Shown: positions 8,291-57,537, counted from the first letter of the stretch. The stretch is 64,000 nt of DNA from Acidobacteriota bacterium (GCA_020199905.1 JAIVJS010000001.1:61069-125068); one strand, 5' to 3'. Made by a program: numbers and translations. The notes: generated by a model from the letters alone, not told the origin.

Positions 8291-8335
8291 CCGTCAGCTC
8301 CGCTGTCAGCTCTCAGCCGTCAGCCAGAGGCCTCT
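8291..8335 (+). repeat. Heptamer array (GTCAGCT/CTCAGCC type) immediately after the stop of the Spy-like gene, followed by palindrome CCAGAGGCCTCTGG
   Basis: ccgtcag ctccgct gtcagct ctcagcc gtcagcc agaggcc, read directly. Confidence 0.6.
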
Positions 8336-8897
8336 GGTCCAACGGCGTCTCGAACTCTTCGTACTCGACCCGCAGCCGGGAGGCGAACTCGAGCATCGTG
8401 CGGCGGCGGTCCTCCGCGATCTCGCGCGCCTTCGGGGTTCGCAGCTCGACTCGCGCGGCCTCCTCGATCTCCGACGCCATCTCCAGGAAGTCGAGCCGCT
8501 CGCGGTATCCCTCGACGAGGCTTCTCGCGACTCCGTACGCGCCGAGGCGGTCGAGCCTCACGGCGTCGTGCACGATCGTTTCCTCCGGGGTGCGCGGGTC
8601 GGTGTCGAACCGCGTCAGGGAACGAAAGAGGGTCGAGATCGTCTTGTGGGGTACCCCCTCGGAGGCCAGGAACAGCTCGGTGCGGCTCCGGTGCCCCATC
8701 CGGGACACCCATTTCTCCTGCCCTGAAAAGACGGCGAGCAGAAAGAGCAGGTCCGGGTCGACGTCCGGTCGGTCGCCGGCGACCAGGACCGCGGCGGAAA
8801 CGGCGCGCCGGACGTCCCCGTAGTTCGTGACGCCGTCGAGCCCGACGGCCATGGGCCTGACGTACTCCTCGACGCGCTTTCGCCCGATGGGATCCAC
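8313..8897 (-). CDS. Hypothetical protein, possibly HD-domain-like
   Basis: Coding-like GC3. Segment ETIVHDAVRLDRLGAYGVARS resembles an HD-domain HD...D region. The assignment is weak. Confidence 0.4.
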   Translation of the reverse strand: MDPIGRKRVEEYVRPMAVGLDGVTNYGDVRRAVSAAVLVAGDRPDVDPDLLFLLAVFSGQEKWVSRMGHRSRTELFLASEGVPHKTISTLFRSLTRFDTDPRTPEETIVHDAVRLDRLGAYGVARSLVEGYRERLDFLEMASEIEEAARVELRTPKAREIAEDRRRTMLEFASRLRVEYEEFETPLDQRPLADG

Positions 8898-8975
8898 GCC
8901 GCGGATGCTACGTCAGCCGAACCGTTCTTCGGTCTCGCCGCGTTCCACCTGTCGACTGCCGCCTCGCGTCCTCCG

Positions 8976-9713
8976 TTAAATCACCCTTCCGCCGTCCACG
9001 CGGAGGATCTGCCCCGTGATGAAGGCCGGGCCCGAGCAGAGAAAGACGACCGCCTGCGCCACATCCTCCGGCGTCCCGTTCCGGCGCGCCGGAACCGACT
9101 TCGCCAGGCTCGCCTCGTCTTCCGGGAACGTCCCGTCCGGGGGAAGCACGACACCGGGAGCGACGCCGTTGACGGAAACTTCCGGCGCCAGCTCGATCGC
9201 GAGCGCGCGGACGAGCCCTTCGACCGCCGCCTTCGAGACGGAGTGCGCGAGGTAGTTGCGCACGGGCCGCGCGGCGAGAAAGTCGGAGATGAGGACGATC
9301 CGTCCCGCCCGCCGGCGCAGCATGGCAGCGGCGGCCCGCGACAGCAGGAACCCGGACCGGGCATTCACGTTCAGGGCGGAATCCCAAAGCGCCGGAGTGG
9401 TCTCCTCGATGGACGCGCGGTGGAAGTTCGAGGCCGAGTGGACGAGGAGGTCGAGTCCGCCGAGCACGCGCTCCGTTTCCGCCACGACGCGCTCGCACTC
9501 GGCGGGCTCCGCCAGGTCTCCCGCGATCCCCGCGGCGCGGCGGCCGAGCGCCCGGATGGTGGCGCACACCTCTTCCGCTCCCGAGGCCGAGGACCGGTAG
9601 TGCACCGCAACGTCGGCGCCCTCCACGGCCAGCGCGAGCGCGATGGCCCGGCCCACCCGGATTCCGGCGCCGGTCACGAGCGCGCCGCGGCCGGAAAGCG
9701 GCAGATCGGCCAT
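8976..9713 (-). CDS. SDR family oxidoreductase
   Basis: LVTGAGIRVGRAIALAL glycine-rich motif; YxxxK-like catalytic region (NYLAHSVSKAAVEGL); 245 aa. Confidence 0.85.
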   Translation of the reverse strand: MADLPLSGRGALVTGAGIRVGRAIALALAVEGADVAVHYRSSASGAEEVCATIRALGRRAAGIAGDLAEPAECERVVAETERVLGGLDLLVHSASNFHRASIEETTPALWDSALNVNARSGFLLSRAAAAMLRRRAGRIVLISDFLAARPVRNYLAHSVSKAAVEGLVRALAIELAPEVSVNGVAPGVVLPPDGTFPEDEASLAKSVPARRNGTPEDVAQAVVFLCSGPAFITGQILRVDGGRVI

Positions 9714-9776
9714 GCCGGATCGTAACCTTTCGGACGAAAAACCCGTATTCTGGGCAGGTTACGCGGAGGACCCGCC

Positions 9777-12700
9777 ATGAAGAGACTCGTCGCCCTTCTC
9801 GCCGCCTGTGCGGCTCTCGGCGCGGCGCCCGCGCGAGCCGGCTCCGTCTCCGGACGCCTGCTCGACGCCTCCGGGAAGCCCGCCCCGGGCGCCCGCGTCC
9901 AGTGGGTGGCGTATCGCACCGAGGACCAGGCCATCGTCGAAATGTCGGCTGCCTCCGAGCCGGCCGCGCTCGGCGAGACGAAGACCGGACCGGACGGCGC
10001 CTTCCGCGTGGCGGTCGACAAGCCGGACCTCGTGATCGGGCTGCGGGTTTTTCCGCCCGGCTCGCCCTCCGTGCGCTTCCGGGGACCGTTCGATTCGACC
10101 GAAGACGTCTCGCTCGAGGATATTCACGCCCTGGCCGGTGCCCGGCTCACCGGACGGATCGTCGACGACGAAGGCAAACCGGTCGCCGGCGCGCGCGTGC
10201 GGGCGGCAGGAACGGAGATTTTTTCGGACCAGGATTCCTCCACGCTCTCGGAGGCGAAGACAGGGGCGGACGGCACGTTCGCGATGGAGGCGGCGCCCGC
10301 CGGAGCCCGGACCATCGTGGCGCGCGCCCCCGGGCTCGTCCAGGTGTCGCTCTTCCAGATGGACCCGAAGCCGGACGTGAAGCTGACGCTCAAACAGGGA
10401 GGAACGATCCGCGGTGTCGTCCTCGACCCAACGGGAAAGGCCGCCGCGGGCGCGATCGTCATTTCCGAAGATCAGGGAGCGGAATCCGGTCCCGACGGGA
10501 CCTTCCGCCTCGCGGGCGTCGAGCCCGGAGTGCGGAACATCCAGGCGGTCTGGAAAGAGGACTTCGCCGTCCGGCGGGACAACCTCCGCGTCAAGCGCGG
10601 CCAGGAGGTCGAAGTGCCGCTGAAGCTCGCGCGCGCCGCGGCGATCGCCGGAACGGTGATCGACGAAGCGACGAGGAAGCCGCTGGCCGGCGCGCGGCTT
10701 GCCGCCTCTTCCGCCGGACCCGCGTTCGGCCTCCGCCGGGCCGAGAGGAGGGTGCGCGCGGATGCGAAGGGGAAGTTCCGGTTGAACGGCCTCGCGCCGC
10801 GTCCGTATGCGGTCACGGGGTCGCGAGAGGGATATCTCGCCTCGGTGATCAACGGCGTCTCCGCCGGGACGGCGGCTCCAGGAACCGTCGCCCTGGCGCT
10901 CGCGAAGGCCGCGAGTGTCGCCGGGAAAGTCGTCGACGAAAAGGGCCAGCCGGTGGCCGGCGCGAACGTTCACTTCGCCCTCGAGGGGGGAATGCGCGGC
11001 TTCCTGCGCCGCGGGCCGTCAACCCTGATGGGCGCGCGGGGCGCCTTCACTGCGGCTGATGGAACCTTCCGGCTGCGCAATCTCGCGGCGGGGCGGAACA
11101 TGATTCTCGAAGCGGGGAAGCCGGGCTACACCGACGCGCGGCGCACCGGCCTCACGTTGAAGACGGGAGACGCGCTGGCCAATGTCTCTCTCACGCTGAA
11201 GAAGGGCCTCGAGGCGCGCGGCAAGGTGGTCGACGGCGAAGGAAAGCCAATACCGGAGGCGGAGGTCCGGGTCGCCGTGCGCGAAGGACGGGGCGGAGGC
11301 ATGGGCAACGTGCGCCAGCAGATCCGGATGGTGGGCATGGACGACAGCAAACCCGACGCCGTCTCGGGACCGGACGGCACCTTCGTCGTGCGAGGTCTCG
11401 AACCGGGCGAGTACAGCGCGGTCGTCGCGCGGGACGGGTACGCGAGGAAGAGCGCGTCGAATCTGGCCGTCGCGCCTGCCGCGGACAATGTGTGGCCTCC
11501 GATCACGCTCGTCAACGGCGCCGCGATCTCGGGATTCGTGCGCGACTCCCAGGGGCAGCCGATCGCCGGCGCGCAGATCTTCGGGTTCTCGATGGCGGAT
11601 GGAATGCGGCCGCAGAGCGTGGCGTCCGACGTGGACGGGCGCTTCCGGCTCGACGGCCTGACGGCGGACAGGTCCCTCTTCGTGAGCCTGACGGCGGCGG
11701 GCTTCGCCCAGACGCAGAAGAGCCTGACGCCCCCGGTGCAGGACGTCGTGATCGTCCTGAAGACGGCGGGGACGATCCGCGGCCACGTGGAGGACGGGGA
11801 CACGAAGAGGCCGATCATCGATTTTTCCGTCGGGCGCAGCGGCCCGCGGGGAGGCGGATTCAATTTCCAGGCGGGCGGGCAGGGGGGCGACAAGGCGTTC
11901 CAGTCCGAGGACGGCTCCTTCGACCTGCCGGACGTCCCCGCGGGAAAGTGGACCGTCCGGGCGACCGCGTCCGGATACCGCAACGGCGAGACGTCGGGCG
12001 TCGAGCTCGGCGAGGGGGAGACGAAAGAAGGCGTCGTCGTCTCCCTGCGCAAAGGCGGCTCGCTTTCCGGGCGTGTCCTCGACCCGAAGAAAGGCACGGG
12101 CGTGCCGAACGCGTCCGTGAGCTGGCAGGCCGCGGGCTCCTCCGGCGGCGGTCCCGGCGCGATGTTTGCCCGGATGGCGGGCGGCGCCGCGAATACCGCG
12201 ACGAATACGGACGCCGACGGGCGATTTCGGTTCGACGGCCTTCCCGAGGGACGGGTCACACTGGTCGCGGACCACCCGGATTACCTCGAGACCAGCCGCG
12301 ACGTGGATCCCGAAAAAGACACGAACGTCGACATCGCGCTCGGAACGGGTGGCGCGATCTCGGGGACCGTCGTCGATCGCGACGGCCGCACTCCGATGGC
12401 CGGGGCTCTCGTCGCGTTGAACGAAGAAGGGGATGCGGGAATGTTCGGCGGAGGAGACTCCACGCGGACGGACGGCTCGGGAGTGTTTTCCTTCGAGCAC
12501 CTGAAGGCGGGGCGATTCAAAGTGTCGGCGCAGTCCGCGGCCGGCAAGTCGGCGCCGAAGGAAGTGATCCTCGCCGAAAATCAGCGGCAGGACGGCGTCC
12601 TGATCGGGATGGTCGCCGCGGGTTCGACGGTCCGGGGTACGGTGTCGGGATTGCCCCGGGGCAAGCTCGGGGGGCTTCGCGTTTTCGCCAACGGAAAGGA

Positions 12701-13877
12701 TTACTCGGACAGCACGCAGACGGACGACACGGGCGCCTTCACGCTCAAGGACGTGCCGCCCGGAATCGTGCAGTTCAACGTCAACACGGGCATGCCCGCC
12801 GGACGGGCGGCGTCGAAGTCCGCCGAGATCCCGGACGAAGGGGGGGAGTTTCCCGTGCAGATCGTTTTCGAGGGATCCTCGCGCCTGGCCGGTCGGGTCA
12901 CGCGCGCCGACCGTCCGCTCGAAGGCCTCTTCATTTCCGCCAACGCGGATCCTCCCTCCCCGGGCGCGGCCCGCGCGACGTCGCAGACCGACGAGGACGG
13001 ACGCTTCGCGCTCGAGGGGCTCTCCGACGGCACGTACCAGATCTCCGTCGGCGGCCGGGGCGTCTCGTACCGCAAAGCCGTTTCGATTACGGGAGACACC
13101 ACCGCGGATGTCGTCATCCCGGCCTCGACGGTCTCGGGAACGGTGACCGAAGAAGGCTCCGGAGCGCCGCTCGAGGGGGCCATGATCCAGGCGGAGAGCG
13201 GGAAGGAGACGGCGGCGGTTTCCATGAAGACGGCGGTCTCCGACTCGTTGGGCCATTACGAGATCGACAGCGTCGATCCGGGCTCGTATCAGATCAGCGC
13301 GCGGAAGGCGGGATACCAGCAGAAGACCTCGACCGCGACCGTGGGCGCGGATTCCTCCACCGCGAATTTCTCTCTCGCGAAGGGGTCCGGGATCTCGATC
13401 CGCATCTCGGACGGCGTCATGGGATTTCCCCTGCACGGCGTCACGGTGCTCGCGTTCGGCGGCAGCGGCGGGGTCGCCTTCCAGGGCTCGGTCAGCCTGG
13501 ACTCATCCGGCAAGGGAGAGATCTCTTCTCTGGGACCGGGCCGGTACTCGATTTACTTCTTCTCCGACGGCTACGCTCCGAGAGCGCTGGCCGCCGTCGA
13601 TGCTCCCTCGCCGGAGGTCGCGATCGCGATGACTCCGGGCGGCCGCGTCGAGGTCCACACGGGAGTGCCCGGCACGGGGCGCCTCACCGACGGTTCCGGC
13701 GCGGTCTACCTCCTGTCGCCCTTCCGGCTCGACGGCCGCGTCACGGCCGTTCCTCCCGCCTCCACCTGGGAGCACCTCGCGCCGGGCCGGTACACCCTCC
13801 AGATGACGGGCGGAGGACAGGGCGTCTATCCCTTCACGATCGCGGAAGGGCAGACGACGCGGCTGGATTTGAAGTAG
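9777..13877 (+). CDS. Large secreted protein of about 14 tandem carboxypeptidase-regulatory-like (CarbopepD_reg / Cna-B-like) domains
   Basis: Signal peptide MKRLVALLAACAALGAAPARA. A module G-x-V-x-D-x-x-G-x-P-x-A-G-A-x-V recurs about 14 times at roughly 90-100 aa spacing (GRLLDASGKPAPGARV, GRIVDDEGKPVAGARV, GKVVDEKGQPVAGANV, GFVRDSQGQPIAGAQI, and so on). Confidence 0.85.
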   Translation: MKRLVALLAACAALGAAPARAGSVSGRLLDASGKPAPGARVQWVAYRTEDQAIVEMSAASEPAALGETKTGPDGAFRVAVDKPDLVIGLRVFPPGSPSVRFRGPFDSTEDVSLEDIHALAGARLTGRIVDDEGKPVAGARVRAAGTEIFSDQDSSTLSEAKTGADGTFAMEAAPAGARTIVARAPGLVQVSLFQMDPKPDVKLTLKQGGTIRGVVLDPTGKAAAGAIVISEDQGAESGPDGTFRLAGVEPGVRNIQAVWKEDFAVRRDNLRVKRGQEVEVPLKLARAAAIAGTVIDEATRKPLAGARLAASSAGPAFGLRRAERRVRADAKGKFRLNGLAPRPYAVTGSREGYLASVINGVSAGTAAPGTVALALAKAASVAGKVVDEKGQPVAGANVHFALEGGMRGFLRRGPSTLMGARGAFTAADGTFRLRNLAAGRNMILEAGKPGYTDARRTGLTLKTGDALANVSLTLKKGLEARGKVVDGEGKPIPEAEVRVAVREGRGGGMGNVRQQIRMVGMDDSKPDAVSGPDGTFVVRGLEPGEYSAVVARDGYARKSASNLAVAPAADNVWPPITLVNGAAISGFVRDSQGQPIAGAQIFGFSMADGMRPQSVASDVDGRFRLDGLTADRSLFVSLTAAGFAQTQKSLTPPVQDVVIVLKTAGTIRGHVEDGDTKRPIIDFSVGRSGPRGGGFNFQAGGQGGDKAFQSEDGSFDLPDVPAGKWTVRATASGYRNGETSGVELGEGETKEGVVVSLRKGGSLSGRVLDPKKGTGVPNASVSWQAAGSSGGGPGAMFARMAGGAANTATNTDADGRFRFDGLPEGRVTLVADHPDYLETSRDVDPEKDTNVDIALGTGGAISGTVVDRDGRTPMAGALVALNEEGDAGMFGGGDSTRTDGSGVFSFEHLKAGRFKVSAQSAAGKSAPKEVILAENQRQDGVLIGMVAAGSTVRGTVSGLPRGKLGGLRVFANGKDYSDSTQTDDTGAFTLKDVPPGIVQFNVNTGMPAGRAASKSAEIPDEGGEFPVQIVFEGSSRLAGRVTRADRPLEGLFISANADPPSPGAARATSQTDEDGRFALEGLSDGTYQISVGGRGVSYRKAVSITGDTTADVVIPASTVSGTVTEEGSGAPLEGAMIQAESGKETAAVSMKTAVSDSLGHYEIDSVDPGSYQISARKAGYQQKTSTATVGADSSTANFSLAKGSGISIRISDGVMGFPLHGVTVLAFGGSGGVAFQGSVSLDSSGKGEISSLGPGRYSIYFFSDGYAPRALAAVDAPSPEVAIAMTPGGRVEVHTGVPGTGRLTDGSGAVYLLSPFRLDGRVTAVPPASTWEHLAPGRYTLQMTGGGQGVYPFTIAEGQTTRLDLK
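9840..13450 (+). repeat. Intragenic tandem domain repeats (about 14 x 270-300 nt, diverged) within the giant CarbopepD_reg gene
   Basis: Periodic recurrence of the G.V.D..G.P.AGA.V module at protein level; the nucleotide copies are diverged rather than identical. Confidence 0.5.
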
Positions 13878-13998
13878 AGGGGTGAGAGGGTCGGGAATCG
13901 AGAGCCGAGCGACCAACGGGAGCAAGACGGCCGCGGTACTCCGCGGTCAACGCGCTCGGGAATAAGAGAGGAGCGGTCTTCTCCGGCCCCTGGGGCTC

Positions 13999-14040
13999 GG
14001 TATTGAAGACTCAACGCTGAACGCTCAACGCTCAACCAGC
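13999..14040 (+). repeat. Heptamer array (GCTCAAC x4) in the spacer after the giant CarbopepD_reg gene
   Basis: actcaac gctgaac gctcaac gctcaac cagctcc. Confidence 0.6.
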
Positions 14041-14543
14041 TCCCGTACCCAGGCAATCGGATCGTCCATCAAACGGTTGTTTTCGGTAAACGCGCGCCAC
14101 TCGGCGAAGAAGGCCCAGAGGTGGAGGGCGACCGCGAAGACCGACGCCGCGAGATGGACCCAGGAGGGAAGCGTCCGCGTGTGCACCGCCGCTCCGAGGA
14201 CGAAGACCGCGATCGCGGCGGCAAGCGCGAAGGTTGCGGGCGGCGAGGTCTGCGCCTTGAACCTCCGAAGGGCCGCCAGGATGGGCTTCTGGTCCACCTC
14301 CGCAAGGCTCGCCACCTCGTCCTTGACCAGGCGCCCCGTCCCGACGAAATAGAAGATCACCATCGACTGCGAGAAGAGCGAGAAGAGCACAGTCGGAATC
14401 GCCCAACCGACGTGACGGCGGACGAGGACCCGCGCGATCGCGGAGCCGGCGCCGATGCCGGTGGCGACGGAGAATCCCTGGATGGAGGTCGCGAGGAAGC
14501 CGGCGAGCGCCAGTGCCGTCGTCAGAAGGAGCGCGAACGACAT
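14025..14543 (-). CDS. Hypothetical membrane protein (4 predicted TM helices)
   Basis: I use the internal ATG at 14543 (MSFALLLTTALALAGFLATS...). The upstream part of track ORF (to 14726) overlaps the fadD promoter region and is not coding-like. Confidence 0.5.
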   Translation of the reverse strand: MSFALLLTTALALAGFLATSIQGFSVATGIGAGSAIARVLVRRHVGWAIPTVLFSLFSQSMVIFYFVGTGRLVKDEVASLAEVDQKPILAALRRFKAQTSPPATFALAAAIAVFVLGAAVHTRTLPSWVHLAASVFAVALHLWAFFAEWRAFTENNRLMDDPIAWVRELVER

Positions 14544-18631: not shown

Positions 18632-20385
18632 GCCAGCCCGCGCCGGCGCCCGTGGATCCGCTTCTCACTTCGCCGGTCAAGACGCTCCTCTCCGGGGACG
18701 TTCCCGAGGACCTCGTCTTCCCATACCCCGCGATTCCGGCGGATGAGAAGGAGACGGTTTCCGCCTTCCTGGGGTCGTTCCGCGATTTCGCGAAGGACCA
18801 CGTCGATCCGGCCCGCTTCGACCGGGAGCACGGGATCGACGCGAAGGTCGTCCGCGGTCTCGCGGATCTCGGCGCCTTTGGAATGATCATCCCGGAGGCC
18901 TACGGCGGCTACGGCTTTTCTTCGAGCGCCTATTGCCGGGTGACCGAGGAGATCGGCCGGACGGACGCATCGCTCGGCATCCTGATCGGCGGGCACCAGT
19001 CGATCGGCCTGAAGGGCCTCATCCTCTTCGGGACCGAGGAGCAGAAAAAACGGTGGCTGCCGAAGCTCGCCGCGGGCGAGATGATCGCCGCCTTCGCCCT
19101 GACGGAGCCGGAGGCAGGCTCGGATGCGGCCTCGATCCGGACGACCGCGGAGTACGACGCGGCCACGGACACGTTCGTCTTGAATGGCAGCAAGCACTGG
19201 ATCTCCAACGGCGGTTTCGCGGAGTTCTTTACCGTGTTCGCGAAAGACGTGAAGCTCGACGCGAAGGACGAGCACCGCCGCATTACGGCGTTCGTCGTCA
19301 CGAAAGACCTCGGGGGGGTCGAGCCGGGGCCCGAGGAGAAGAAGCTCGGCCTCAAGGGCTCATCCACGGTGCCGCTCGAGCTGAAGAACGTGCGCGTTCC
19401 GGGGTCCCACCTGCTCGGGGAGCGGGGACAGGGCTTCCGCATCGCCGTCGAGATCCTCAACACCGGCCGGACGTCGCTCGGCGCCGGCTGCGTCGGCGGC
19501 TCCAAGCGAATGATCGAGCTCGCGGCGCGGCAGGCGACCTCGCGCCGGCAGTTTCAGACCCGTATCGCGGATTTCGAGATCATCCGGGCGAAGTTCGCGC
19601 GCATGGTCGTCAACACGTACGCGCTCGAGTCGATGGTGTACCTGACGGCGGGTCTCGTGGACCGCGGCCTCGCGGACTACTCGGTCGAGGGCGCGTGCTG
19701 CAAGATTTTCGGCACCGAGAGCGTCTGGCAGACGATCAACGACGCCCTGCAGATCGCGGGCGGCAACGGCTTCATGGAGGAGTATCCGTACGAGCGCGCC
19801 CTGCGGGACTCGCGCATCAACATGATCTTCGAAGGAACCAACGAGATCCTGCGAGTCCTGGTCGCCCTCTCCGGAATGAAGGAGATCGGCGAGGGGCTCC
19901 AGGAGGTCGGCCGCGCGTTGAAGGCCCCGCTCTCGTCGTTCGGGATCCTTTCCGACTACGCGGTGCGGCGCGTGCTGCGGACTCTCCCGGCGGGCCGCAT
20001 CAGCCGGGTGGCGCCTGCCCTGGCCCCGGAGGGCGAGGCCGTCGCGAGATACGCCATGGCGTGCGGGAGAGCCGTCGAGACGATCCTTCGCAAGTACGGC
20101 AAGGGCGTCCTGACGAAGGAGTACCACCACGAACGGCTGGCGAACGTGGGGATCGACCTCTACGCTTCGGTCGCGGTCCTCTCCCGCGCGACGTCGTCGA
20201 TCGAGGCGAAAGGCGAGGAGAAGTCGGCGGAAGAAATCCGGCTCGCCAGGATCTTCATCCGCGGAGCGCGCCACCGCGTCGTCGGGCAGTTGAAGGACAT
20301 AGATCGGAACCTCGACCCGGACGTCACCGCCGTTTCCGAGACGGCGTACGGCGCGCTCGGGTACGCCTTCCCGTACTGGGAGTGA
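18628..20385 (+). CDS. Acyl-CoA dehydrogenase family protein (about 586 aa, with C-terminal extension)
   Basis: The ATG overlaps the upstream stop (ATGA at 18628-18631). ACAD motifs present (LTEPEAGSDAASIRTTA...; QIAGGNGFMEEYPYERALRDSRI). Confidence 0.85.
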   Translation: MSQPAPAPVDPLLTSPVKTLLSGDVPEDLVFPYPAIPADEKETVSAFLGSFRDFAKDHVDPARFDREHGIDAKVVRGLADLGAFGMIIPEAYGGYGFSSSAYCRVTEEIGRTDASLGILIGGHQSIGLKGLILFGTEEQKKRWLPKLAAGEMIAAFALTEPEAGSDAASIRTTAEYDAATDTFVLNGSKHWISNGGFAEFFTVFAKDVKLDAKDEHRRITAFVVTKDLGGVEPGPEEKKLGLKGSSTVPLELKNVRVPGSHLLGERGQGFRIAVEILNTGRTSLGAGCVGGSKRMIELAARQATSRRQFQTRIADFEIIRAKFARMVVNTYALESMVYLTAGLVDRGLADYSVEGACCKIFGTESVWQTINDALQIAGGNGFMEEYPYERALRDSRINMIFEGTNEILRVLVALSGMKEIGEGLQEVGRALKAPLSSFGILSDYAVRRVLRTLPAGRISRVAPALAPEGEAVARYAMACGRAVETILRKYGKGVLTKEYHHERLANVGIDLYASVAVLSRATSSIEAKGEEKSAEEIRLARIFIRGARHRVVGQLKDIDRNLDPDVTAVSETAYGALGYAFPYWE

Positions 20386-21217
20386 GGCGTCCGGCGGGAA
20401 CCGAGGCGAACCGGTCGGGAACACCCCAGCCCCTGCCGGGAAAGACGCCCGCTTCGATAGCGCGCTCCACGTAATCGATCGCCTCGCGCACCGACGACTC
20501 GAGTCCCTTTCCGAGCGCGAGGTTCGCGGCGATCGCGGCGGAAAGCGTGCAGCCGGTCCCGTGGCGCGCCCGGCTCGTCGACCGCGGATGCTCGAAATCG
20601 ATGAAGCGCCGCCCGTCGAAGAGCAGGTCCCGGACGACGGCCCCGCGGCGGTGCCCGCCCTTGATGAGGACCGCGCGGGGACCCGCGTCGGCCAGGATCC
20701 CCGCGGCGAGCCGCAGGTCGCTCTGGTTGCGGATCGGAATCCCGGCGAGGGCCTCGGCCTCCGGGAGGTTCGGTGTGACGAGGTCGCAGAGCGGAAGCAG
20801 CGTCCGCCGGAGGAGCGGAATCGCGGCGGGGTCGAAGAGAGGAGAACGGTCCTTCGCGGCGAGGACCGGATCGAGCACGACGTTAGCCGGCGCGTGGAGG
20901 CGCAGGCCGGCCGCGACCGCCCGCAGGCGACGCGCGTCGTGCAGTGCCCCGATCTTCACCCCCGAGGGGCGGAAATCGGGGAAGACGGCGTCCATCTGCC
21001 GCCGGATGAACTGCGGAGAGAATGGCTCTACCGCGGAAATCCCTCGCGTGTTCTGCGCCGTGCCCGCCGTCAGCACGGACACTCCGTACACGCCGTGCGC
21101 CGCGAACGTGGCGAGGTCGGCCTGGATGCCCGCACCTCCGCCCGAATCCGAGGCGGCAATGGTCAGGGCGACGGGCGGGCGCGGCCGGCGGGAGTCGGTC
21201 GCCATTACAATCGTCAT
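20324..21217 (-). CDS. thiD: Hydroxymethylpyrimidine/phosphomethylpyrimidine kinase
   Basis: Begins MTIVMATDS...VALTIAASDSGGGAGIQADL (ThiD N-terminus). The first 93 codons of the track ORF (to 21496) have poor GC3 and lie antisense to a well-supported IscA-like gene, so I exclude them. The start could be off by up to 12 nt (MATDS). Confidence 0.8.
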   Translation of the reverse strand: MTIVMATDSRRPRPPVALTIAASDSGGGAGIQADLATFAAHGVYGVSVLTAGTAQNTRGISAVEPFSPQFIRRQMDAVFPDFRPSGVKIGALHDARRLRAVAAGLRLHAPANVVLDPVLAAKDRSPLFDPAAIPLLRRTLLPLCDLVTPNLPEAEALAGIPIRNQSDLRLAAGILADAGPRAVLIKGGHRRGAVVRDLLFDGRRFIDFEHPRSTSRARHGTGCTLSAAIAANLALGKGLESSVREAIDYVERAIEAGVFPGRGWGVPDRFASVPAGRLTPSTGRRTRARRTPSRKRR

Positions 21218-21220
21218 CCT

Positions 21221-21526
21221 ATGCCCGAGCCGCCCCTGACGATCACGCGCGACGCCGCCCGGAAACTGCGCACGGAGGCGGACTTTACCCGCGCGGTCCT
21301 CGCGGTCCGGCAGGTCCTCGGATGCGGGGGCAACGGCTACCGGATCTCGGTCGAGGAGAACGAGCCCGACGAGGGTCATCGCTTCGTCGCGGAAGGCATC
21401 CCGGTGGTGATGGACGACGTCTCGTTCACGCGCCTGCGCGGAGCGATCCTCGAGCTCGATCCGGATCCGGCGGGGGAGGGATACCGCCTCGACCATCCGG
21501 AAGCCGTGATGACGACATTCTGCTGA
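21221..21526 (+). CDS. IscA/HesB-family (Fe-S cluster insertion-like) protein lacking the C-terminal CGCG
   Basis: MPEPPLTITRDAARKL...LGCGGNGYRISVEENEPDEGHRFVAEGIPVVMDDVSFTRLRGAILELDPDPAGEGYRLDHPEA aligns along the length of E. coli IscA (ITLSDSAAARV...GCSGMAYVLEF...[28 protein letters not shown]...GFKFTNPN), up to the C-terminal CGCG which this protein lacks. High GC3. My hand indexing and the ORF track differ by 1 nt near 21230, so the start is +/-1. Confidence 0.5.
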   Translation: MPEPPLTITRDAARKLRTEADFTRAVLAVRQVLGCGGNGYRISVEENEPDEGHRFVAEGIPVVMDDVSFTRLRGAILELDPDPAGEGYRLDHPEAVMTTFC

Positions 21527-21630
21527 GAAGAAGTCGAGAGTCAGGAGATCAGAGTCGAGAGTAGAAGACCCGCCGGCGCGCCTGCGGATCCCTCCGGACT
21601 CTGAGCTCTCGACTCTCGACTGCCCCGTGC
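21527..21630 (+). repeat. Inverted pair of heptamer arrays (..GAGTCGAGAG.. / ..CTCTCGACTC..) around a GC-rich core, followed by a T-tract; candidate large terminator hairpin
   Basis: gagtcgagagtagaag ... ggactctgagctctcgactctcgactg ... cctcttttttcc; a 10-bp perfect inverted repeat flanked by further heptamers. Confidence 0.45.
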
Positions 21631-21639
21631 CTCTTTTTT

Positions 21640-22100
21640 CCTCGCTCTGGCTGTTCGTCGTGGCGTTTCTCGGGCTCGTCTCACGCCCGGGCCGGCCGTG
21701 CTCTACATCACAACCCGCTCGCTGAGCCAGGGCCGCGCCCGGCCGGCTTTTTCTCGGCGCTCGGCGTCGCGGTCGGATCCGTTGTCCACGTCGCGGCGGC
21801 GACGCTCGGTCTCTCCGCTCTTCTCGTCTTCTCCGCGCTCGCCTTCGAGCTCGTCCGATTCCTCGCAGCGGGTTACCTCATCTGGCTCGGCGTCCGGCGG
21901 ATCCTCTCGAAGGACGGCGACGAGAGCGCCGCCTCGCTGCCGAAGCGCCCGCTTGCCGCCGTGTTCCGCCAGGGGGCCGTCGTGAATCTGCTGAACCCGA
22001 AGACGACGCTCTTCTACACGATCGCGGCGGGTTCGCTCGGCGGCCGGCTGCTTGACCGGCCAGGGATTCTTTCCCGCGGCCGCTGCGTTTCAGACAGTGT
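21640..22100 (+). pseudogene. LysE/RhtB-family translocator remnant: frameshifted, no start codon, C-terminally truncated
   Basis: Across three frames the translation reads LFVVAFLGLVS / PGPAVLYITTRSLSQGR / ALGVAVGSVVHVAAATLGLSALLVFSALAFELVRFLAAGYLIWLGVRRILS...FRQGAVVNLLNPKTTLFY. This matches RhtB (LSPGSG...LKWAGAAYLIWLGIQQWR...FQRAVFVNLTNPKSIVF). After the NPK motif similarity decays, and the convergent ABC gene ends at 22183. Confidence 0.55.
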
Positions 22101-22182
22101 GTCTATCCGGCTCGGCCCGGCCACGGCCTTCGGAGCGAGCGGGACGCTAAGAGTCAAGAGTTGAGGATCGAACTCTCGCCTC

Positions 22183-22950
22183 TCAACTCCTGACGCTCAA
22201 CTTCTCCTCCAGCAGCTCCTTCGTCGCCGCGTGCTGCGGGTTCGTCAGCACGGACGACGGATCGCCTTCCTCCGCGACCCGGCCCGCCGCGAGGACGACC
22301 ACGCGGTCGGCGAATCGGCGCGCGAACTCCGCGTCGTGGGTCGTGACGAGAAGGCCGCGGCCCTCCCCGGCCAGCGAGCGGAGGACTTCTCCGAGGGCTC
22401 CGCGGCGCGCCGGATCCAGGGAGGCGGTGGGCTCATCCATCAGGAGAAGCGGCGGGTCGACGGCGAGAGCGCGGGCGATCGCGACCCGCTGCGCTTCACC
22501 GCCGGAAAGCTCGCGGGGGTACGCCGAGGCCCGGTGCCCGACGCCGAGAGACTCGAGGAGATCGACGCTCCGGGCGCGGGCTTCCTCGGCCGTGCGCCCA
22601 TGCGCGTAGACAGGAGCGAGTGTGGTATTGGCGAGGGCGGTCAGATGCTCGAACAGGGCATGCGCCTGAAAGACCATGCCGGCGCGCCGGCGCAGCTCCT
22701 TGAGGCGCGACTCCGGCGGCACGGGCCCGGGACGAAGCTCGAAGCCCTCCACGCCGATCCTCCCTCCGTCGAAGGCCTCGAGAGCGACGGCGGCCCGGAG
22801 CACGGTCGTTTTGCCGGAGCCCGAGAGCCCCATCAGGACGCAGACCTCGCCGCGGTCCACCGTCAGGTCGACCCCGTCGAGCACGCGACGGTCTCCGCGC
22901 ACGAGGCGCAGGTTGCGGACTTCGAGCAGGGCGTTTCGGCCTGCGCTCAC
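22183..22950 (-). CDS. Amino-acid ABC transporter ATP-binding protein
   Basis: Walker A GLSGSGKTT; ABC signature LSGGEAQRVAIARAL; Walker B LLLMDEPT. The GTG start overlaps the permease stop (GTGA). Confidence 0.8.
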   Translation of the reverse strand: MSAGRNALLEVRNLRLVRGDRRVLDGVDLTVDRGEVCVLMGLSGSGKTTVLRAAVALEAFDGGRIGVEGFELRPGPVPPESRLKELRRRAGMVFQAHALFEHLTALANTTLAPVYAHGRTAEEARARSVDLLESLGVGHRASAYPRELSGGEAQRVAIARALAVDPPLLLMDEPTASLDPARRGALGEVLRSLAGEGRGLLVTTHDAEFARRFADRVVVLAAGRVAEEGDPSSVLTNPQHAATKELLEEKLSVRS

Positions 22951-37791: not shown

Positions 37792-37802
37792 GAGCCGACG
37801 GC

Positions 37803-38393
37803 TTACTTCCCGGGCGAGTAGTACGGATTCCGTCCCGCGCCATGGTCCGTCGTGTCCAGGATCTCCCCGACGCGGGGCACCAGCTCGCGGATCGCCTTCT
37901 CGATGCCCTGCTTCAACGTCACGTCGGCAGCGCCGCAGCCCTGGCACCCGCCGCCCAGCCGCAGGTAAACGTTGTTCTTCTTCACGTCGATCAGCTCGAC
38001 GAATCCGCCGTGGGACGCGACGGCCGGATTGATCTGCCGGGCGAGAAGATCGCCGATCGCCCATTTGAGATCGCCCTCGGAGGGGAGGTCCTGAAAGTAG
38101 CGGTCGGCCACGATCGGGCCTCCGGCGCGGAGGTGCTTTCGGATCACGTTTCCGAGCGCCAGCGCGGGCCAGTCGACCGCGTGGGCGGCGGCCACCGTCA
38201 TGACGTTTTCCGCCAGAAGCACCGATTCGACGCTCTCGATTGCCAGGATCTCCTCCGCGAGCGCGGAGACACCGGGCTCGGCCGGGGACGCGAAAAACGC
38301 CGATTCTCCAGGGACCAGGGGTTGGTCGACTGTGTATTTACAGCGGTCTCCCCGCTCGGAAGGCTCGCCCGTGATCTTGATCTCGTCCTGCAC
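37803..38393 (-). CDS. NifU/Nfu-type Fe-S cluster scaffold protein (Nfu N-terminal + NifU C-terminal domains)
   Basis: C-terminal GGGCQGCGAADVTLKQGIE (CxxC) and an Nfu_N-like KITGEPSERGDRCKYTVDQPLVPGESAFF. GTG start at 38393; the upstream 118 codons of the track ORF are rejected. Confidence 0.7.
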   Translation of the reverse strand: MQDEIKITGEPSERGDRCKYTVDQPLVPGESAFFASPAEPGVSALAEEILAIESVESVLLAENVMTVAAAHAVDWPALALGNVIRKHLRAGGPIVADRYFQDLPSEGDLKWAIGDLLARQINPAVASHGGFVELIDVKKNNVYLRLGGGCQGCGAADVTLKQGIEKAIRELVPRVGEILDTTDHGAGRNPYYSPGK

Positions 38394-42420: not shown

Positions 42421-42424
42421 CGAG

Positions 42425-42490
42425 TTTTCCATCTTCAGTTTTCAGTTTTCACTGTTGGCTCAGAGGTGACGACTGATAACTGACAACGGA
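42425..42490 (+). repeat. Heptamer array (TTTTCAG / TGACAAC types) after the GT2 stop
   Basis: ttttcca tcttcag ttttcag ttttcac tgttggc tcagagg tgacgac tgataac tgacaac. Confidence 0.55.
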
Positions 42491-42574
42491 TTACTCCTTC
42501 TGCGCTAACATCCCGCCCGCCATCAACGTCCCTCTGCCCCCTCGCCCGCGAAAAACGCGTCGGAGGAGGAAATC

Positions 42575-47705: not shown

Positions 47706-47826
47706 GAGCATGCGCTGCAGCTGTCAGCTCTCAGCTCTCAGTTCAGAGCTCTCGAACCCGAGCTCTCCACTTTCCACTCGCAACCCTTGACTCTCAGCGC
47801 TTAACTCTCAACTCTCCACTTCCCCC
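47706..47826 (+). repeat. Phased array of 15 degenerate heptamers (CAGCTGT CAGCTCT CAGCTCT CAGTTCA GAGCTCT ... CAACTCT CCACTTC)
   Basis: Read directly: 12 nt + 15 x 7 nt + 4 nt fills the whole spacer between the pdp stop and the GDPD ATG. The array is C/T-rich and G-poor on the coding strand. Confidence 0.75.
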
Positions 47827-48852
47827 ATGACCATGCTCGGAAGGGCAAACCCGCTCGAACGGATTTTTCGCGGCGTGCGAGGGAAGCTCTGGCCGGGGCG
47901 CGGCGTGTCCGCTGCGGCGCCGCGCACCGTGCGGGTGATCGCCCACCGCGGCGCGGCTCGGGTGAGAGCGGAGAACACGATCGAGGCGTACGCGGCCGCG
48001 GTCGACCTCGGGGCCGACGGCGTCGAGGCGGACGTCTGCGTCACGCGCGATGGGCGGTTCGTGATCTGGCACGACGCCGACCCGGGCGAGAAGATCGCCC
48101 TCGCGCGGCAGTCGGGACGGGAGGGGCTGCTGTGCACTCCGGACGTTCCGACCCTCGTCTCGAAATGGCGCCGGCGCGTCAAAGACCTCGACTACGAAGA
48201 CTTCCGCACCCACTACGGATACCGCCTGCGGGAGGGGGGCATCGCGGACCTGATCGGCAACGACGACCCGCCGAAGATCCCCGCCGCCACATTCGATGAC
48301 CTGATCGCGTGGGCGGACCGGGAGCCGCGGCTCGCCACGATCTGCCTCGACATCAAGCTGGCGCCCGACCAGACTGATTCGGCCGCGCGGCTCTTCGACC
48401 TTCTGCGGGATCTCTTCGCCGAACGGCGGGACGCGGCCTTTCCGGCCGTCGCGCTCCTGACCCCGCAGCGCGAGATCTTCGAGGCGTTTCAAAGGGAGTC
48501 GGCACGGCATCCCCACGACGACCGGCTCACCGTTCACGCCGACTTCGAGCTCCCTGGCGTGCTGGCCGCAGCGCGGCGCCTGCGATTCCGCCGCGTGAGC
48601 ATGGGAGTCGGACAGCGGTTCTGGCCGGGCTTCCGCGACGAGGTGGCGGACGTCGTGCGGGCGCGGGAGCGCGGAGAGCTCGACGCCGTGATCGTCTGGA
48701 CGCTAAACGAGCCGGACCGGCTGGCCAGACTGGTCGCGTTCGGCGTGGACGGAATCCTCACCGACGAGCCGGCGGCGCTTCGAAAGATGATCTCCGAAGG
48801 CCGCTCCGAGTCGCTGCGCTCTCGCCATTCGGAGGCGCGGGCGCGCAGTTAG
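47827..48852 (+). CDS. Glycerophosphodiester phosphodiesterase family protein
   Basis: GDPD motifs (RVIAHRGAARVRAENTIEAYAAAVDLGADGVEADVCVTRDGRFVIWHD). Confidence 0.8.
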   Translation: MTMLGRANPLERIFRGVRGKLWPGRGVSAAAPRTVRVIAHRGAARVRAENTIEAYAAAVDLGADGVEADVCVTRDGRFVIWHDADPGEKIALARQSGREGLLCTPDVPTLVSKWRRRVKDLDYEDFRTHYGYRLREGGIADLIGNDDPPKIPAATFDDLIAWADREPRLATICLDIKLAPDQTDSAARLFDLLRDLFAERRDAAFPAVALLTPQREIFEAFQRESARHPHDDRLTVHADFELPGVLAAARRLRFRRVSMGVGQRFWPGFRDEVADVVRARERGELDAVIVWTLNEPDRLARLVAFGVDGILTDEPAALRKMISEGRSESLRSRHSEARARS

Positions 48853-53330: not shown

Positions 53331-54313
53331 TGCGCGTCACCGTTCTCGGCGCCGGATCCTGGGGCACCGCGCTCGCCCTGCACCTCGGCCGCGGGGGGCA
53401 CGACGTCGTTCTCTGGAGCCGGGACCCGGCGGTCGCGGAGCACATCCAGTCCACGCGCCGACATCTTCGCCGTTTCGCGAATTCCGCGCTCCCGGCGAGC
53501 GTTCGCGCGACGGCGAACCTCCCCGAGGCGCTCGACTACGCCGACACGGCGCTCGTGGCCGTGCCGTGCGCCTCCTTCCGGCCGCTCTTCGAATCGATGC
53601 CGAGGGAAATGGCGGCTCGCCGTTTCGTGTCTGTCGCCAAGGGGATCGAGCCCGACACGCTGTCCCGCATGACGTCGATCATTCTCGAGTACCGCCCCGG
53701 CGCCGACGTCGCCGCCCTCTCGGGCCCGACCTTTGCGGAGGGGGTCGCGAGGGGAGATCCGAGCGCCGCCGTCATCGCGGACGCCGGCGGAGGGCTCGCG
53801 CAGGAGCTCCAGGGGCAGTTCTCTGACGGCCGTCTCCGCCTCTACAGCTCGCGCGACCTCGTCGGCGTCGAGCTCGCGGGGGCGCTGAAGAACGTCGTGG
53901 CGATCGCGGCGGGCGTCGTCTCCGGACTCGGGTTCGGGCCGAACACCGTCGCGGCGCTCGTCACCCGGGGCCTGGCGGAGCTCGGCCGGATCGTGCGGGC
54001 ACGCGGCGGAGAGGCGCGCACCGTTGCGGGGCTCGCGGGCGTCGGCGACCTCATGCTGACGTGCACGGGCCGCGAGTCGCGCAACCGGCGGGTCGGCGAG
54101 GAAATCGGGCGGGGAGGGCGGCTGTCGGAGATCCTCCTCCGGATGCCCGAAGTCGCCGAAGGGGCCCGGACCTGTCTCGCCGTTCCCCGGATGGCGGCCG
54201 AGGCCGGAATGGAGTCGCCCATCGCGGACGCCGTGGTGCAGGTGCTCTACCAGGACGTACCGCCCGGGGAGGCCGTCGAAAGACTGATGACGAGAACGCT
54301 GAGAAGCGAATGA
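53330..54313 (+). CDS. gpsA: NAD(P)H-dependent glycerol-3-phosphate dehydrogenase
   Basis: MRVTVLGAGSWGTALA Rossmann motif. GpsA catalytic region (LKNVVAIAAGVVSGLGFGPN). TGATG overlap with plsY. Confidence 0.9.
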   Translation: MRVTVLGAGSWGTALALHLGRGGHDVVLWSRDPAVAEHIQSTRRHLRRFANSALPASVRATANLPEALDYADTALVAVPCASFRPLFESMPREMAARRFVSVAKGIEPDTLSRMTSIILEYRPGADVAALSGPTFAEGVARGDPSAAVIADAGGGLAQELQGQFSDGRLRLYSSRDLVGVELAGALKNVVAIAAGVVSGLGFGPNTVAALVTRGLAELGRIVRARGGEARTVAGLAGVGDLMLTCTGRESRNRRVGEEIGRGGRLSEILLRMPEVAEGARTCLAVPRMAAEAGMESPIADAVVQVLYQDVPPGEAVERLMTRTLRSE

Positions 54314-54314
54314 G

Positions 54315-54356
54315 TTGTCAGTTCTCAGTTCTCAGTTCTCAGTTCTCAGTTCTTGG
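54315..54356 (+). repeat. (GTTCTCA)n tandem heptamer array, 4 perfect + 2 degenerate copies, starting 2 nt after the gpsA stop
   Basis: Sequence gttgtca gttctca gttctca gttctca gttctca gttcttg, read directly. Confidence 0.85.
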
Positions 54357-54391
54357 TTTCCGGACGTGAGCGGACTGCCGACCCGAACTGA

Positions 54392-56365: not shown

Positions 56366-56724
56366 AGCGTGACCGGCGGCGATTATTGAGGCGGCCGGCT
56401 CGGGTGTCAAACCCGCGCCGGCGGAGGCCTCCCGGATCTCCGTTCTTCCGGTCGAACGTGCATTTTGGGTGCCCTCCGGCGGCTCGAGAGCATATGATCC
56501 CCGTAGGCCAGCGGGTTGCCGGGCGTCCGAAGCTCTCGAGAGACCGGCGCCGACGGTTCCCGATGAAGGACCCACCCGGACTGGTCAATGGTGGCAAGGT
56601 CCGCAGAAAACGCCCGAAATCAATCCGAGCACGGGTCGAGTTTCGTAATTTCGAGGTGGGATCGATTGACGAAGGTTTTTGACGTCCGCGGCGCAATTTC
56701 GCGCCTCGAGGCTGAGGAGGATGA

Positions 56725-57042
56725 ATGAAGAAGGTATTTGCTCTCTCGCTGGTGGCTGTGCTGTGTCTGGCGGTCGTCGCGGTGGCCGGGGACGACAAGA
56801 TGATGGGCAAGGGAAAGATGGGCGGCGCCAGCGAAGGCACCGTCTCGAAGCTCGACATGGCCGGGAAGATGATGATGGTCAAGGACAGCGCCGGCAAGGA
56901 ATCCACGATCTATTGGAACGATTCCACGAAGGTCGAGGGCGGGGAGCTCAAGGAAGGCGCCCTCGTTAACTACAAGGGCGCGGAGAAGGACGGCAAGATG
57001 TGGGCGACCTGGGTCCACGTCGGCGAAATGAAAAAGATGTGA
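56725..57042 (+). CDS. Small periplasmic Met/Lys-rich protein (possible CusF-like OB-fold metal-binding protein)
   Basis: GAGGAGG 6 nt upstream of the ATG. Signal peptide MKKVFALSLVAVLCLAVVAVAG. Met-rich motifs (KMMGKGKMGG, GKMMMVKD) and conserved Trp (WATWVHV). GC is lower than the surroundings. Confidence 0.6.
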   Translation: MKKVFALSLVAVLCLAVVAVAGDDKMMGKGKMGGASEGTVSKLDMAGKMMMVKDSAGKESTIYWNDSTKVEGGELKEGALVNYKGAEKDGKMWATWVHVGEMKKM

Positions 57043-57056
57043 ATCCGGAGAAAAAA

Positions 57057-57080
57057 GGGCGGCACGGACCGCCCTTTTTT
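57057..57080 (+). terminator. Rho-independent terminator (GGGCGG-cacgga-CCGCCC-TTTTTT)
   Basis: A perfect 6-bp GC stem with a 6-nt loop followed by T6, 15 nt after the stop of the Met-rich protein gene. Confidence 0.75.
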
Positions 57081-57537
57081 CTGTTCTGAGTTCTCAGTCG
57101 TTCCCCCGCATCCGAGGAGCACGGGGTTGAAATCTCACCGTTTCCCCGCGCCGCCCTTCCCCTTTCGCCTCCAGGGGCCATTTGAGTGAAAAATGACCAG
57201 AATTGACGCGCATTCCGACTAGAATTCGCCAACGGCCTCACGACGATTCCTCCCGCGGCGCCTCGTCGCCCTCCTGTTCCTGCTCCTCTCCGGCGGGCCG
57301 CTCTCGCTTCGCGCGGAGCGCAAGACGCCGCCCGGCGCCGCGGCGGCGCAGCGCGAGCCGGAAGCGGAAAGCGAGAAGGAGGACGGCCCCGGGCAGATTC
57401 GCGAACGCGTTCGCCTCTATCTGAAGAGACATTCCGAGAACGGCCGGATCGATCCGGAGCGCCGCCTCGAAAAGGTCGCCGCCGAATACACGCGGTTTCG
57501 GGACGAGGAACGGCGCGGCGGCCGCGCGAGGCTGTCC

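Follow-up and report, generated by a model that had tools for sequence, protein, structure and literature searches.

Phased heptanucleotide arrays flush with stop codons in an Acidobacteriota genome: candidate REP/BIME-like elements of transcript ends

Dispersed short repeats of several kinds occupy the non-coding DNA of prokaryotes, and some of them resemble the elements treated here, which are arrays of in-phase seven-nucleotide units in the spacers of a 64,000-nucleotide stretch of an Acidobacteriota bacterium (GCA_020199905.1, JAIVJS010000001.1:61069-125068; "the window" denotes this whole stretch). The STRR sequences of heterocystous cyanobacteria, attributed to Mazel et al. in 1990, are said to be dispersed tandem heptanucleotide families of non-coding DNA, with units that reportedly read CCCCAGT and CAACAGT and share a CAGT core with units of the window; units and phylum differ from those of our arrays, and we know of no description of stop-codon adjacency or pair polarity for them. 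Repetitive extragenic palindromes (REPs) are single imperfect palindromes of 20-40 nt spread by the RAYT transposase, and many of them, as Liang et al. reportedly found in 2015, lie within ~15 nt of a stop codon. According to PMC3733652, REP pairs are polar, with a conserved tetranucleotide on the outside (GTAG/CGTC). Among long simple sequence repeats (SSRs) of prokaryotes, the heptanucleotide class is the commonest, at least in the brief summary of Mrazek 2007 given in PMC4679880. In the TAACTGA repeats (MacGregor 2015, PMC4679880), 2 to dozens of tandem 7-nt units lie between genes, one strand carrying stops in all frames and the other none, and BOGUAY holds 169 direct sets and one indirect; in Nostoc, heptamer repeats near start codons change the expression of a reporter (bioRxiv 10.1101/2022.06.06.494920). 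Our arrays bear the closest resemblance to REPs and the bacterial interspersed mosaic elements (BIMEs), because they start inside the footprint of the terminating ribosome and lack U-tracts. We tentatively read them, with a probability of roughly 0.45, as REP/BIME-like RNA elements of 3' untranslated regions (UTRs) and intercistronic spacers that would be built from slippage-prone heptamers.

In the window, whose G+C content is 68%, period-7 arrays occupy about ten spacers clearly and two weakly (12 loci in 64 kb). The initial annotation had noticed phased seven-nucleotide arrays at these places, and there Tandem Repeats Finder (TRF) and inspection of the sequence agree, with period 7 reported at 88-106, 8289-8325, 14010-14036, 21532-21562, 21597-21621, 28501-28530, 42423-42451, 47718-47753, 47763-47820 and 54313-54353. 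The periodicity exceeds chance by a wide margin and is peculiar to 7: within the 7.1 kb of spacers, a 4-mer is found again at a distance of 7 in 129 cases and at 14 in 99, against 29-64 at the other distances from 4 to 15, and six of the eight strong period-7 segments fall in the non-coding 11% of the window, while periods 8-12 yield at most one segment. The pattern TCAGN3TCAGN3TCAG, with at most one mismatch, has 16 matches at 8 loci where 0.13 would be expected; a scan of the window for the same core at period 6 or period 8 gave 0 matches. The loci represent a single heptanucleotide microsatellite family whose unit is nnnTCAG, mostly CAG(C/T)TCT, and they have the habit of long heptanucleotide SSRs, being dispersed, mostly non-coding series of at least three head-to-tail copies that change by whole units. 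What the units have in common is the TCAG core every 7 nt, not pyrimidine richness. The arrays had been described as C/T-rich and G-poor, which is true of about a third of the loci: it applies to 42425-52, 47718-47826, 54315-56 and 57085-110 (C+T 0.69-0.79, G 0.07-0.19), is marginal for 8291, 28501 and 37785 (G 0.24-0.29), and fails for 20-34, 3536-80, 13999-14040, 21527-62 and 22141-95. That they do not code is correct for the most part, except that three arrays overlap annotated ends of open reading frames (ORFs) and two donate a TGA stop: ORFs 8313-8897(-) and 14025-14543(-) draw theirs from array units (8313-8315 and 14025-14027), and ORF 3542-4024(-) reads through an array (3545-3580) in the stop-free orientation, its last 12 codons being repeat-encoded. 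In this way the arrays reshape ORF ends.

In their units, the arrays appear to be a GC-richer sibling of the TAACTGA/STRR heptamers of Beggiatoaceae, cyanobacteria and Bacteroidota. They share with the TAACTGA repeats the tandem 7-nt organization between genes, the strand asymmetry of stop codons, a unit identical at 6/7 positions (TCAGTTA vs TCAGTTC/TCAGCTC in the window) and, apparently, in many loci fetched from other genomes, CTGA-sense copies directly before predicted start codons. Window units are TCAGTTC, TCAGCTC and variants, and the exact TAACTGA occurs once, at 42473-42479; arrays at two fetched loci (L004, L021) mix CAGTTAT, the complement of TAACTGA, with CAGTTCT. The differences are that the acidobacterial arrays use mainly the opposite strand and stand flush after stops, that their unit is GC-richer, and that about 30% of them form polar inverted pairs, as against the single indirect set among those of BOGUAY (PMC4679880). 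Hosts among the Acidobacteriota, Verrucomicrobiota, Planctomycetota and Gemmatimonadota do not appear in MacGregor 2015 (PMC4679880), and our literature search found no description of such arrays in Acidobacteriota. The window arrays are a variant, in Acidobacteriota, of an already known heptamer repeat class, marked by stop-flush sense arrays and polar hairpin pairs.

The family extends well beyond this genome, so that the initial description of it as genome-specific has to be given up. Exact CAGYTCT x3 was scanned in one genome per GTDB species and occurs at no fewer than 120 loci of these species representatives, mostly in Acidobacteriota among the matches listed, where a random 18+3Y pattern would be expected about twice among 1.2e12 positions. 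By title, the 120 matches listed comprise 79 Acidobacteriota (Acidobacteriaceae, Terriglobales, Sulfotelmatobacter, Vicinamibacterales, Thermoanaerobaculia and Pyrinomonadaceae), 13 Verrucomicrobiota, 7 Bacteroidota, 3 Planctomycetota, 3 cyanobacteria, 2 Gemmatimonadota and 13 others. The same triplet of units is also present in 23 viral or proviral contigs (L206-L228, IMG/VR), and a further 10 kb of the same genome upstream of the window (L124) contained no more arrays. An unbiased sample was obtained from a protein-based scan of metagenomes for relatives of gpsA, which gave 80 contigs; of these, the 60 that reach 3 kb or more (690 kb in all) were analysed. Intergenic tandem repeats in this sample have mainly period 7 (21/33 arrays intergenic) and 14 (6/6), the other periods being mostly coding. 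Their units are specific to the locus and the genome (GTCAGAG x26, AGTCCGT/AGTCAGT, GTTTCAG, AGCTGTC, TATTTTC and others); TCAG or CAG is present in most of them, and the sample includes ten inverted pairs. Heptamer arrays stand directly after gpsA in six lineages, with differing units and with inverted pairs in five; in five lineages besides that of the window (L128, L164, L152, L153, L205) a heptamer hairpin with units unlike those of the window begins 1-7 nt past the gpsA stop. Some relatives have very large heptamer hairpins; in one (L145, 606-865), (GTCAGAG)26 and its inverted arm take up the spacer between two convergent genes, coming within 4 nt of either stop.

Special attention was given to the placement of the arrays relative to genes. 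For the window, the gene map consists of the gene calls and Pfam hits of near-identical contigs from two metagenome-assembled genomes that match it at 99.8-99.96% identity (GCA_020200255.1, contig JAIVJB010000005.1, and GCA_046262695.1), and it is independent of our own codon-usage caller. By inspection, arrays lie in 7/9 convergent spacers, 4-5 of ~15 co-directional ones and 0-1 of ~10 divergent ones, the class of one pair (21527-21630) being uncertain in that it depends on an unsupported 101-aa ORF (21221-21526). They had been said to begin within 0-15 nt of a stop codon, and seven do so at 0-13 nt (20-34, 8291, 28501(-), 37785(-), 42425, 47718 and 54315); the array at 13999-14040 does not, lying 122 nt from the plus-strand gene. 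In the wider sample, formed by the 120 loci with CAGYTCT x3, genes were called by a self-trained codon model, and of the 145 arrays located, 134 lie outside genes. Taken as a whole, this sample is not biased towards sense, co-directional spacers holding 30 sense vs 49 antisense arrays. Among arrays that have a co-oriented 5' gene (TCAG strand), 39/58 start between -3 and +13 nt from its stop; antisense arrays that near a stop number only 13, and some of these supply that stop themselves. Lone arrays in convergent spacers lie nearer the stop of the gene with TCAG on its coding strand in 15/18 cases (p = 0.0075), and, since these spacers contain neither a start codon nor a ribosome-binding site, placement there is free of that bias. 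The claimed orientation with the upstream gene therefore survives an independent test (39 sense vs 13 antisense after stops, 15 vs 3 in convergent spacers): a gene whose stop adjoins an array has TCAG on its coding strand, as one would expect if the arrays act in the 3' UTR. Sense after a stop is the dominant form of the lone arrays (29/44). Antisense arrays tend to precede start codons, in the form (AGARCTG)n, 2-8 nt, ATG; in the fetched loci 20/73 of them lie within 15 nt of a predicted start, a count that uses our own caller, whose start calls are biased because the antisense strand of an array carries TGA in all three frames. In the window, the starts that follow the CTGA arms at 86-115 and 42466-90 are 50 and 85 nt away. 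The identity of the adjacent stop codon carried no signal (TAG at 16/39 array-flanked genes vs 35% background), and the uneven register of TCAG relative to the stop (29/39 in three registers) merely restates that arrays start 2-4 nt past it.

The second regularity concerns inverted pairs, which had been expected to form hairpins. Four pairs in the window (7-115, 21527-21640, 22135-22200 and 42421-42495) fold at z = -2.1 to -4.5, in agreement with that expectation, and lone arrays of the window are unstructured (z > -0.8). In the wider sample, a CTGA-type partner was found by regular expression within 220 nt on the 3' side of 36/124 arrays and on the 5' side of 3. When pairs are defined by TRF, 35 are of type I (TCAG arm 5', CTGA arm 3') vs 2 of type II, and both of the latter (L025, L157) lie between convergent genes. 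When present, the CTGA arm lies 3' and faces the next gene. Of the 47 pairs for which both neighbours were called, 34 lie between co-directional genes; 30 of these start no more than 15 nt past the stop and 14 end no more than 15 nt before the next start. The sense transcript of these 34 is more stable than the antisense in 23 vs 11 cases (Wilcoxon p = 0.015), with 112 vs 80 G-U pairs, and because sense transcripts fold better and with more G-U pairs, this is modest evidence that the RNA, and not only the DNA, may be under constraint. No T-run abuts the hairpins of the window. According to these folding predictions, the arms pair into a long hairpin without a U-tract that starts a few nucleotides past the stop. 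The possibility that the stop-rich arm has to come second was considered as the cause of the polarity; pairs without the TCAG core gave no rule (4 vs 3) and are too few.

These features are those in which the arrays approach the REP/BIME (REPIN) elements of Enterobacteria and Pseudomonas, which are likewise dispersed and extragenic, occupy 3' UTRs and intercistronic spacers, and often form inverted pairs with U-tract-less hairpins; inverted pairs folding into extragenic hairpins near the 3' ends of genes are what the arrays present. They differ from REPs in that the arms are tandem arrays that change by slippage, no single unit being palindromic, and in that the window copies share no conserved core or loop. 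No RAYT (Y1 transposase) is annotated in the window contigs, in which no search aimed at RAYT was made. If the resemblance extends to function, the transcribed extragenic hairpins would stabilise or delimit the upstream message: they could act as barriers to 3'-to-5' exonucleases, reduce read-through or provide a site for processing, and the number of units would tune their strength. Because they lie so close to the stop, inside the footprint of a ribosome, the arrays might also affect the ribosome that terminates there. If the 3' arm adjoins the next start, a terminating ribosome might open the foot of the hairpin and so couple the translation of the two genes, a geometry that none of the window copies has. 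Lone arrays would be half-elements, unstructured tails to which a factor that binds single-stranded RNA may be recruited. To account for them and for the arm polarity, something in addition would be needed, either such an RNA-binding factor with a 7-nt footprint or counter-selection of the purine-rich, stop-rich strand after stops.

It is important to consider several observations that weigh against this interpretation. About 70% of the CAGYTCT arrays have no detectable partner, and therefore the hairpin is not the whole story. The arrangement is strand-symmetric, and types I and II give the same duplex, so hairpin stability cannot explain the polarity. In nine pairs the flanking genes are divergent. 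For the fetched loci, gene positions were taken from a crude caller that made at least one error in the window, where it placed a false gene at 20588-21526(+), antisense to a PfkB-family kinase gene, and where the contig annotation was used instead. In the unbiased sample, spacers bearing a 3' end were not significantly enriched in arrays over divergent spacers (6/73 and 13/243 vs 2/81, p = 0.27). The periodicity in the 60 nt after stops, proposed at the outset as a check, showed no preference for stops over starts in the same sample: strong period-7 windows number 7/550 after stops and 5/545 in the 60 nt before starts, which is equally frequent, and mid-gene controls have none. The arrays after gpsA and after the thymidine phosphorylase gene of the window are absent from syntenic relatives (65-83% protein identity), one of which (L127) has a single TTCTCAG at the equivalent place, and each copy is therefore dispensable. 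Finally, the function is read from anatomy alone.

Other readings of the gene-end position were also weighed. As had been stated, intrinsic terminators are scarce, consensus scans of the window putting terminator-like sites at shuffle level. A reading of the arrays themselves as canonical intrinsic terminators was rejected, these being hairpins with no adjoining U-tract. The initial annotation had favoured a role in loading Rho, in which sense arrays would be compact Rho utilization (rut) sites, exposed once the ribosome leaves the stop and terminating transcription at gene ends. The predominance of lone sense arrays after stops (29/44, and 15 vs 3 in convergent spacers), their lack of structure and the absence of canonical terminator enrichment in the window speak for it; some arrays are YC-rich with C > G, CAGUUCU offers two UC dimers per unit, and every second unit would give a YC spacing of 14 nt, within the accepted 11-15 nt (PMC6144790). 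Under the E. coli-based rules, however, rut sites have YC dimers with 9-13 nt linkers and a footprint of ~57 nt (PMC6144790), whereas the median array of the wider sample has 5 units (35 nt) and a period of 7 that is unlike Rho's; in the window, only 47718-47826 is rut-sized, the others measuring 15-45 nt. That one array abuts the ATG of the next co-directional gene, which termination there would silence, and other arrays too lie flush between co-directional genes. Furthermore, about 30% of arrays are in stable hairpins, in which the supposed rut would be hidden, relatives can have a G-rich arm next to the stop (GTCAGAG x26), antisense copies precede start codons, and an Oscillatoria locus (L063) shows the same stop-flush geometry although cyanobacteria, according to PMC12642595, lack Rho. 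We consider Rho loading decidedly improbable. The exclusion of CRISPR made at the outset stands, since the units are contiguous, 7 nt long and without spacers (CRISPR repeats have 23-50 nt and unique spacers), and no cas domains occur in the annotated neighbours. Miniature inverted-repeat transposable elements were rejected as well, the loops between arms sharing no sequence among the window copies by inspection.

The strand specificity and the folding bias also bear on a role at the level of DNA, in which the arrays would be recombination or rearrangement hot spots, cruciform sites or arrays for DNA-binding proteins. MacGregor suggests rearrangement roles for long arrays (PMC4679880). The spacer at 47706-47826, 121 nt composed entirely of heptamers, lies at a synteny break, as the GDPD gene (47827-48852) is absent in a relative (L135, 4436-4500), where the ABC-F gene comes directly after thymidine phosphorylase; gpsA is followed by arrays wherever its downstream neighbour differs; and long palindromic pairs reach -202 kcal/mol, the value predicted for a 302-nt heptamer pair (L048, 6482-6783). 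Against this, strand specificity follows the direction of the adjacent gene, the sense-over-antisense folding bias points to RNA, and a 7-bp period is unlike the DNA helical repeat, which together leave a DNA-level role very remote in our estimation.

A third regularity, the 7-nt period with its conserved core, raises the question of a protein partner. A protein-binding array had been named at the outset as an alternative. The TCAG arm could be the platform of a protein that covers 7 nt of single-stranded RNA, such as one with a cold-shock domain, which would sit once on each unit and control the hairpin, and hence read-through, stability or translation. Such a platform would explain the period, the core, the strand specificity at RNA level and the fact that transcription always reaches the binding arm first; T/C-rich units with a TTCT or GTTTC core are numerous, the CspB of B. 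subtilis binds a heptanucleotide with the consensus GTCTTTG/T and a preference for pyrimidines (PMC1904285), and Csp, S1 or CsrA are the candidates put forward by MacGregor for the TAACTGA repeats (PMC4679880). Candidate proteins are named here by analogy only, however; there are purine-rich arms next to stops (GTCAGAG, GGGCAGAAGGCAGT), Csp proteins show little sequence specificity, and CAGTTCT matches the CspB consensus in part only. We regard the platform as improbable, and we give no better chances to its most far-reaching form, a heptamer "code" across phyla in which (NNNUCAG)n after stops and (CUGANNN)n before starts would be read by a dedicated RNA-binding protein with a 7-nt footprint that decides on the pairing of the arms. 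If that code existed, neighbouring genes would be coupled or uncoupled through transcript stability, read-through or re-initiation, and this would be a layer of post-transcriptional control new to Acidobacteriota, to Planctomycetes-Verrucomicrobia-Chlamydiae (PVC) bacteria and to cyanobacteria, whose setting would mutate in 7-nt steps.

The arrays are also variable in length. Over 20.6 kb compared with the 99.8%-identical strain GCA_046262695.1, the sole indel is the loss of one exact TTCTCAG unit at 54318-54324, and the five arrays covered by another matching contig (L001) have no indels. Between Terriglobia species whose flanks are 74-88% identical, orthologous arrays have the same unit in different copy number (10 vs 11, 15 vs 16, 9 vs 5), both loci of each pair having been picked by pattern, which biases their ascertainment. 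Because the sole strain indel is a whole unit and orthologous arrays differ in unit number, the arrays show slippage-type behaviour and probably grow and shrink in 7-nt steps by replication slippage. Degenerate units are equally frequent on both sides of the perfect core, the trailing CAG excepted, and gave no sign of growth from one end. Judging from these comparisons, individual copies are dispensable and fairly young, and the class is old and widespread. The arrays might instead be of neutral or selfish origin: slippage in unconstrained spacers, inverted arms made by template switching and a deletion bias that brings the repeats flush with genes would leave functionless by-products. Copy number does vary between strains and species, units differ between loci and genomes, copies of the window are missing in syntenic relatives, arrays are spread over spacer types roughly in proportion, and the prevalence of heptanucleotides among long prokaryotic SSRs summarised in PMC4679880 fits as well. 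Neutrality does not predict, however, that orientation is non-random (39 vs 13 after stops, 15 vs 3 in convergent spacers, 35 vs 2 in pair polarity), that the same unit recurs across many species and several phyla, that orthologous arrays keep the same perfect unit while their flanks diverge by 12-26%, or that a TCAG or CAG core is common to most units of the unbiased sample. A functionless by-product is thus rather unlikely in our judgement, and we keep to the tentative interpretation of the arrays as REP/BIME-like RNA elements.

The individual copies in the window are as follows. The first hairpin has its 5' arm GAGAGTTCTCAG at 20-34 on the plus strand, 13 nt past the stop of a YkuD-domain gene ending at position 6, and its 3' arm (ACTGACC ACTGAAC ACTGAGAAC) at 86-115 with TCAG on the minus strand, 50 nt upstream of gene 166-1029(+); the fold of 7-125 has -47.7 kcal/mol (z = -4.5). 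Directly after this hairpin, a sigma-70-like promoter (TTGCCT, 17 nt, TAGAAT; 128-166) ends 9 nt before the TTG start at 166, which suggests a possible leaderless mRNA and a terminator-then-promoter layout. A lone, unstructured array of AGTTnnn x5 (3536-3580, TCAG on minus, z = -0.2) lies 85 nt past the tRNA-Arg gene, the only element that an Rfam search of the window returned. The array of CCGTCAG, CTGTCAG and CTCTCAG at 8291-8335(+) begins 0 nt past the stop of 7778-8290(+), and one of its units gives the TGA of the convergent 8313-8897(-). The array of CAACGCT x3.9 (90% match) at 13999-14040(+) follows 9777-13877(+), is unstructured (z = -0.7), overlaps the 3' end of the minus-strand gene 14025-14543 and supplies its stop; in the spacer upstream of it, GCA_020200255.1 has a 32-nt tandem duplication of 13936-13967. 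The same assembly lacks 286 nt (19633-19918) inside an acyl-CoA dehydrogenase gene, which is there split into two calls.

The next hairpin consists of the 5' arm AGTCGAG/AGTCAGG/AGATCAG at 21532-21562(+), just past the unsupported ORF 21221-21526(+), and its partner GACTCTGAGCTCTCGACTCTCGACT at 21597-21621(-), with z = -3.4; the 5' arm lies upstream of the LysE gene at 21601-22164(+). A short inverted pair without assigned strand (AAGAGTC AAGAGTTGAG ... CTCAACTC, 22150-22195) spans the stops of LysE(+) at 22164 and of an ABC ATPase gene(-) at 22183, its minus strand folding at -31.4 kcal/mol (z = -4.1). The lone array CTCTCAG CTGTCAG CTGTCGG CTGTCAG (28501-28530, minus) begins 0 nt past the stop of the NDH-2 gene 28529-29788(-). 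An isolated TCAGCTCTCAAC at ~32697 lies within a gene-poor stretch of 1.3 kb (32668-33997) that has the lowest G+C of the window (0.62), no confident gene in our own calls and no Rfam hit. A weak array, GCTCTCA GCTCTCA, occupies 37785-37805 on the minus strand in an 11-nt gap between convergent stops; like 57085-57110, it has 2-3 units only.

At 42423-42452(+), the 5' arm TCTTCAG TTTTCAG TTTTCAC follows the stop of 41263-42420(+) by 4 nt (z = -4.2), an exact-protein look-up of this gene's product having found no match, and its 3' arm GACGACTGATAACTGACAACGGA at 42466-42490(-) holds the one exact TAACTGA. By coordinate arithmetic, contig JBHEMI010000237.1 of GCA_046262695.1 starts at about position 42454, inside the loop of the hairpin 42425-42490, which suggests that arrays can break short-read assemblies; a 403-aa NupC-like call in that assembly had the look of a difference in sequence at array 42425-90, but is most probably a gene cut short where the contig ends. 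About 15 same-sense heptamers (CAGCTCT, CAACTCT, CCACTTT and others) fill 47718-47826(+), 109 nt with C 43% and G 13% that extend from 12 nt past the thymidine phosphorylase stop to the ATG of the co-directional GDPD gene. The best array, (TTCTCAG)5-6 at 54312-54353(+), overlaps the TGA of gpsA and is the one that is a unit shorter in GCA_046262695.1; its degenerate inverted partner ACTGCCG ACCCGA ACTGA (54370-54391, minus) abuts the stop of a convergent permease gene, and the predicted pairing is weak (z = -0.6). The weak 2-unit copy TCTGAGTTCTCAGTCG at 57085-57100(+) stands right behind a canonical terminator at 57057-57080 (GGGCGG CACGGA CCGCCC, then T6), which follows the 105-aa gene 56725-57042 and was not listed by the consensus scan. 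The window also encodes a 1366-aa protein with 12 CarboxypepD_reg domains, a gene content which, taken with the relatives retrieved, suggests the Acidobacteriota as its source.

In this acidobacterial genome, heptamer arrays occur regularly at the boundaries of genes. Three rules that the neutral model does not predict, namely that the sense strand is flush after the stop, that the order of the arms is fixed and that the TCAG core recurs across phyla, make a testable hypothesis at the level of RNA out of a vague repeat class. Annotation is affected too, since arrays provide stop codons and lengthen ORFs, and short-read assemblies may break at them. If they modulate transcript ends or the coupling of genes, the slippage of units would offer soil bacteria a cheap and reversible way of tuning many operons.

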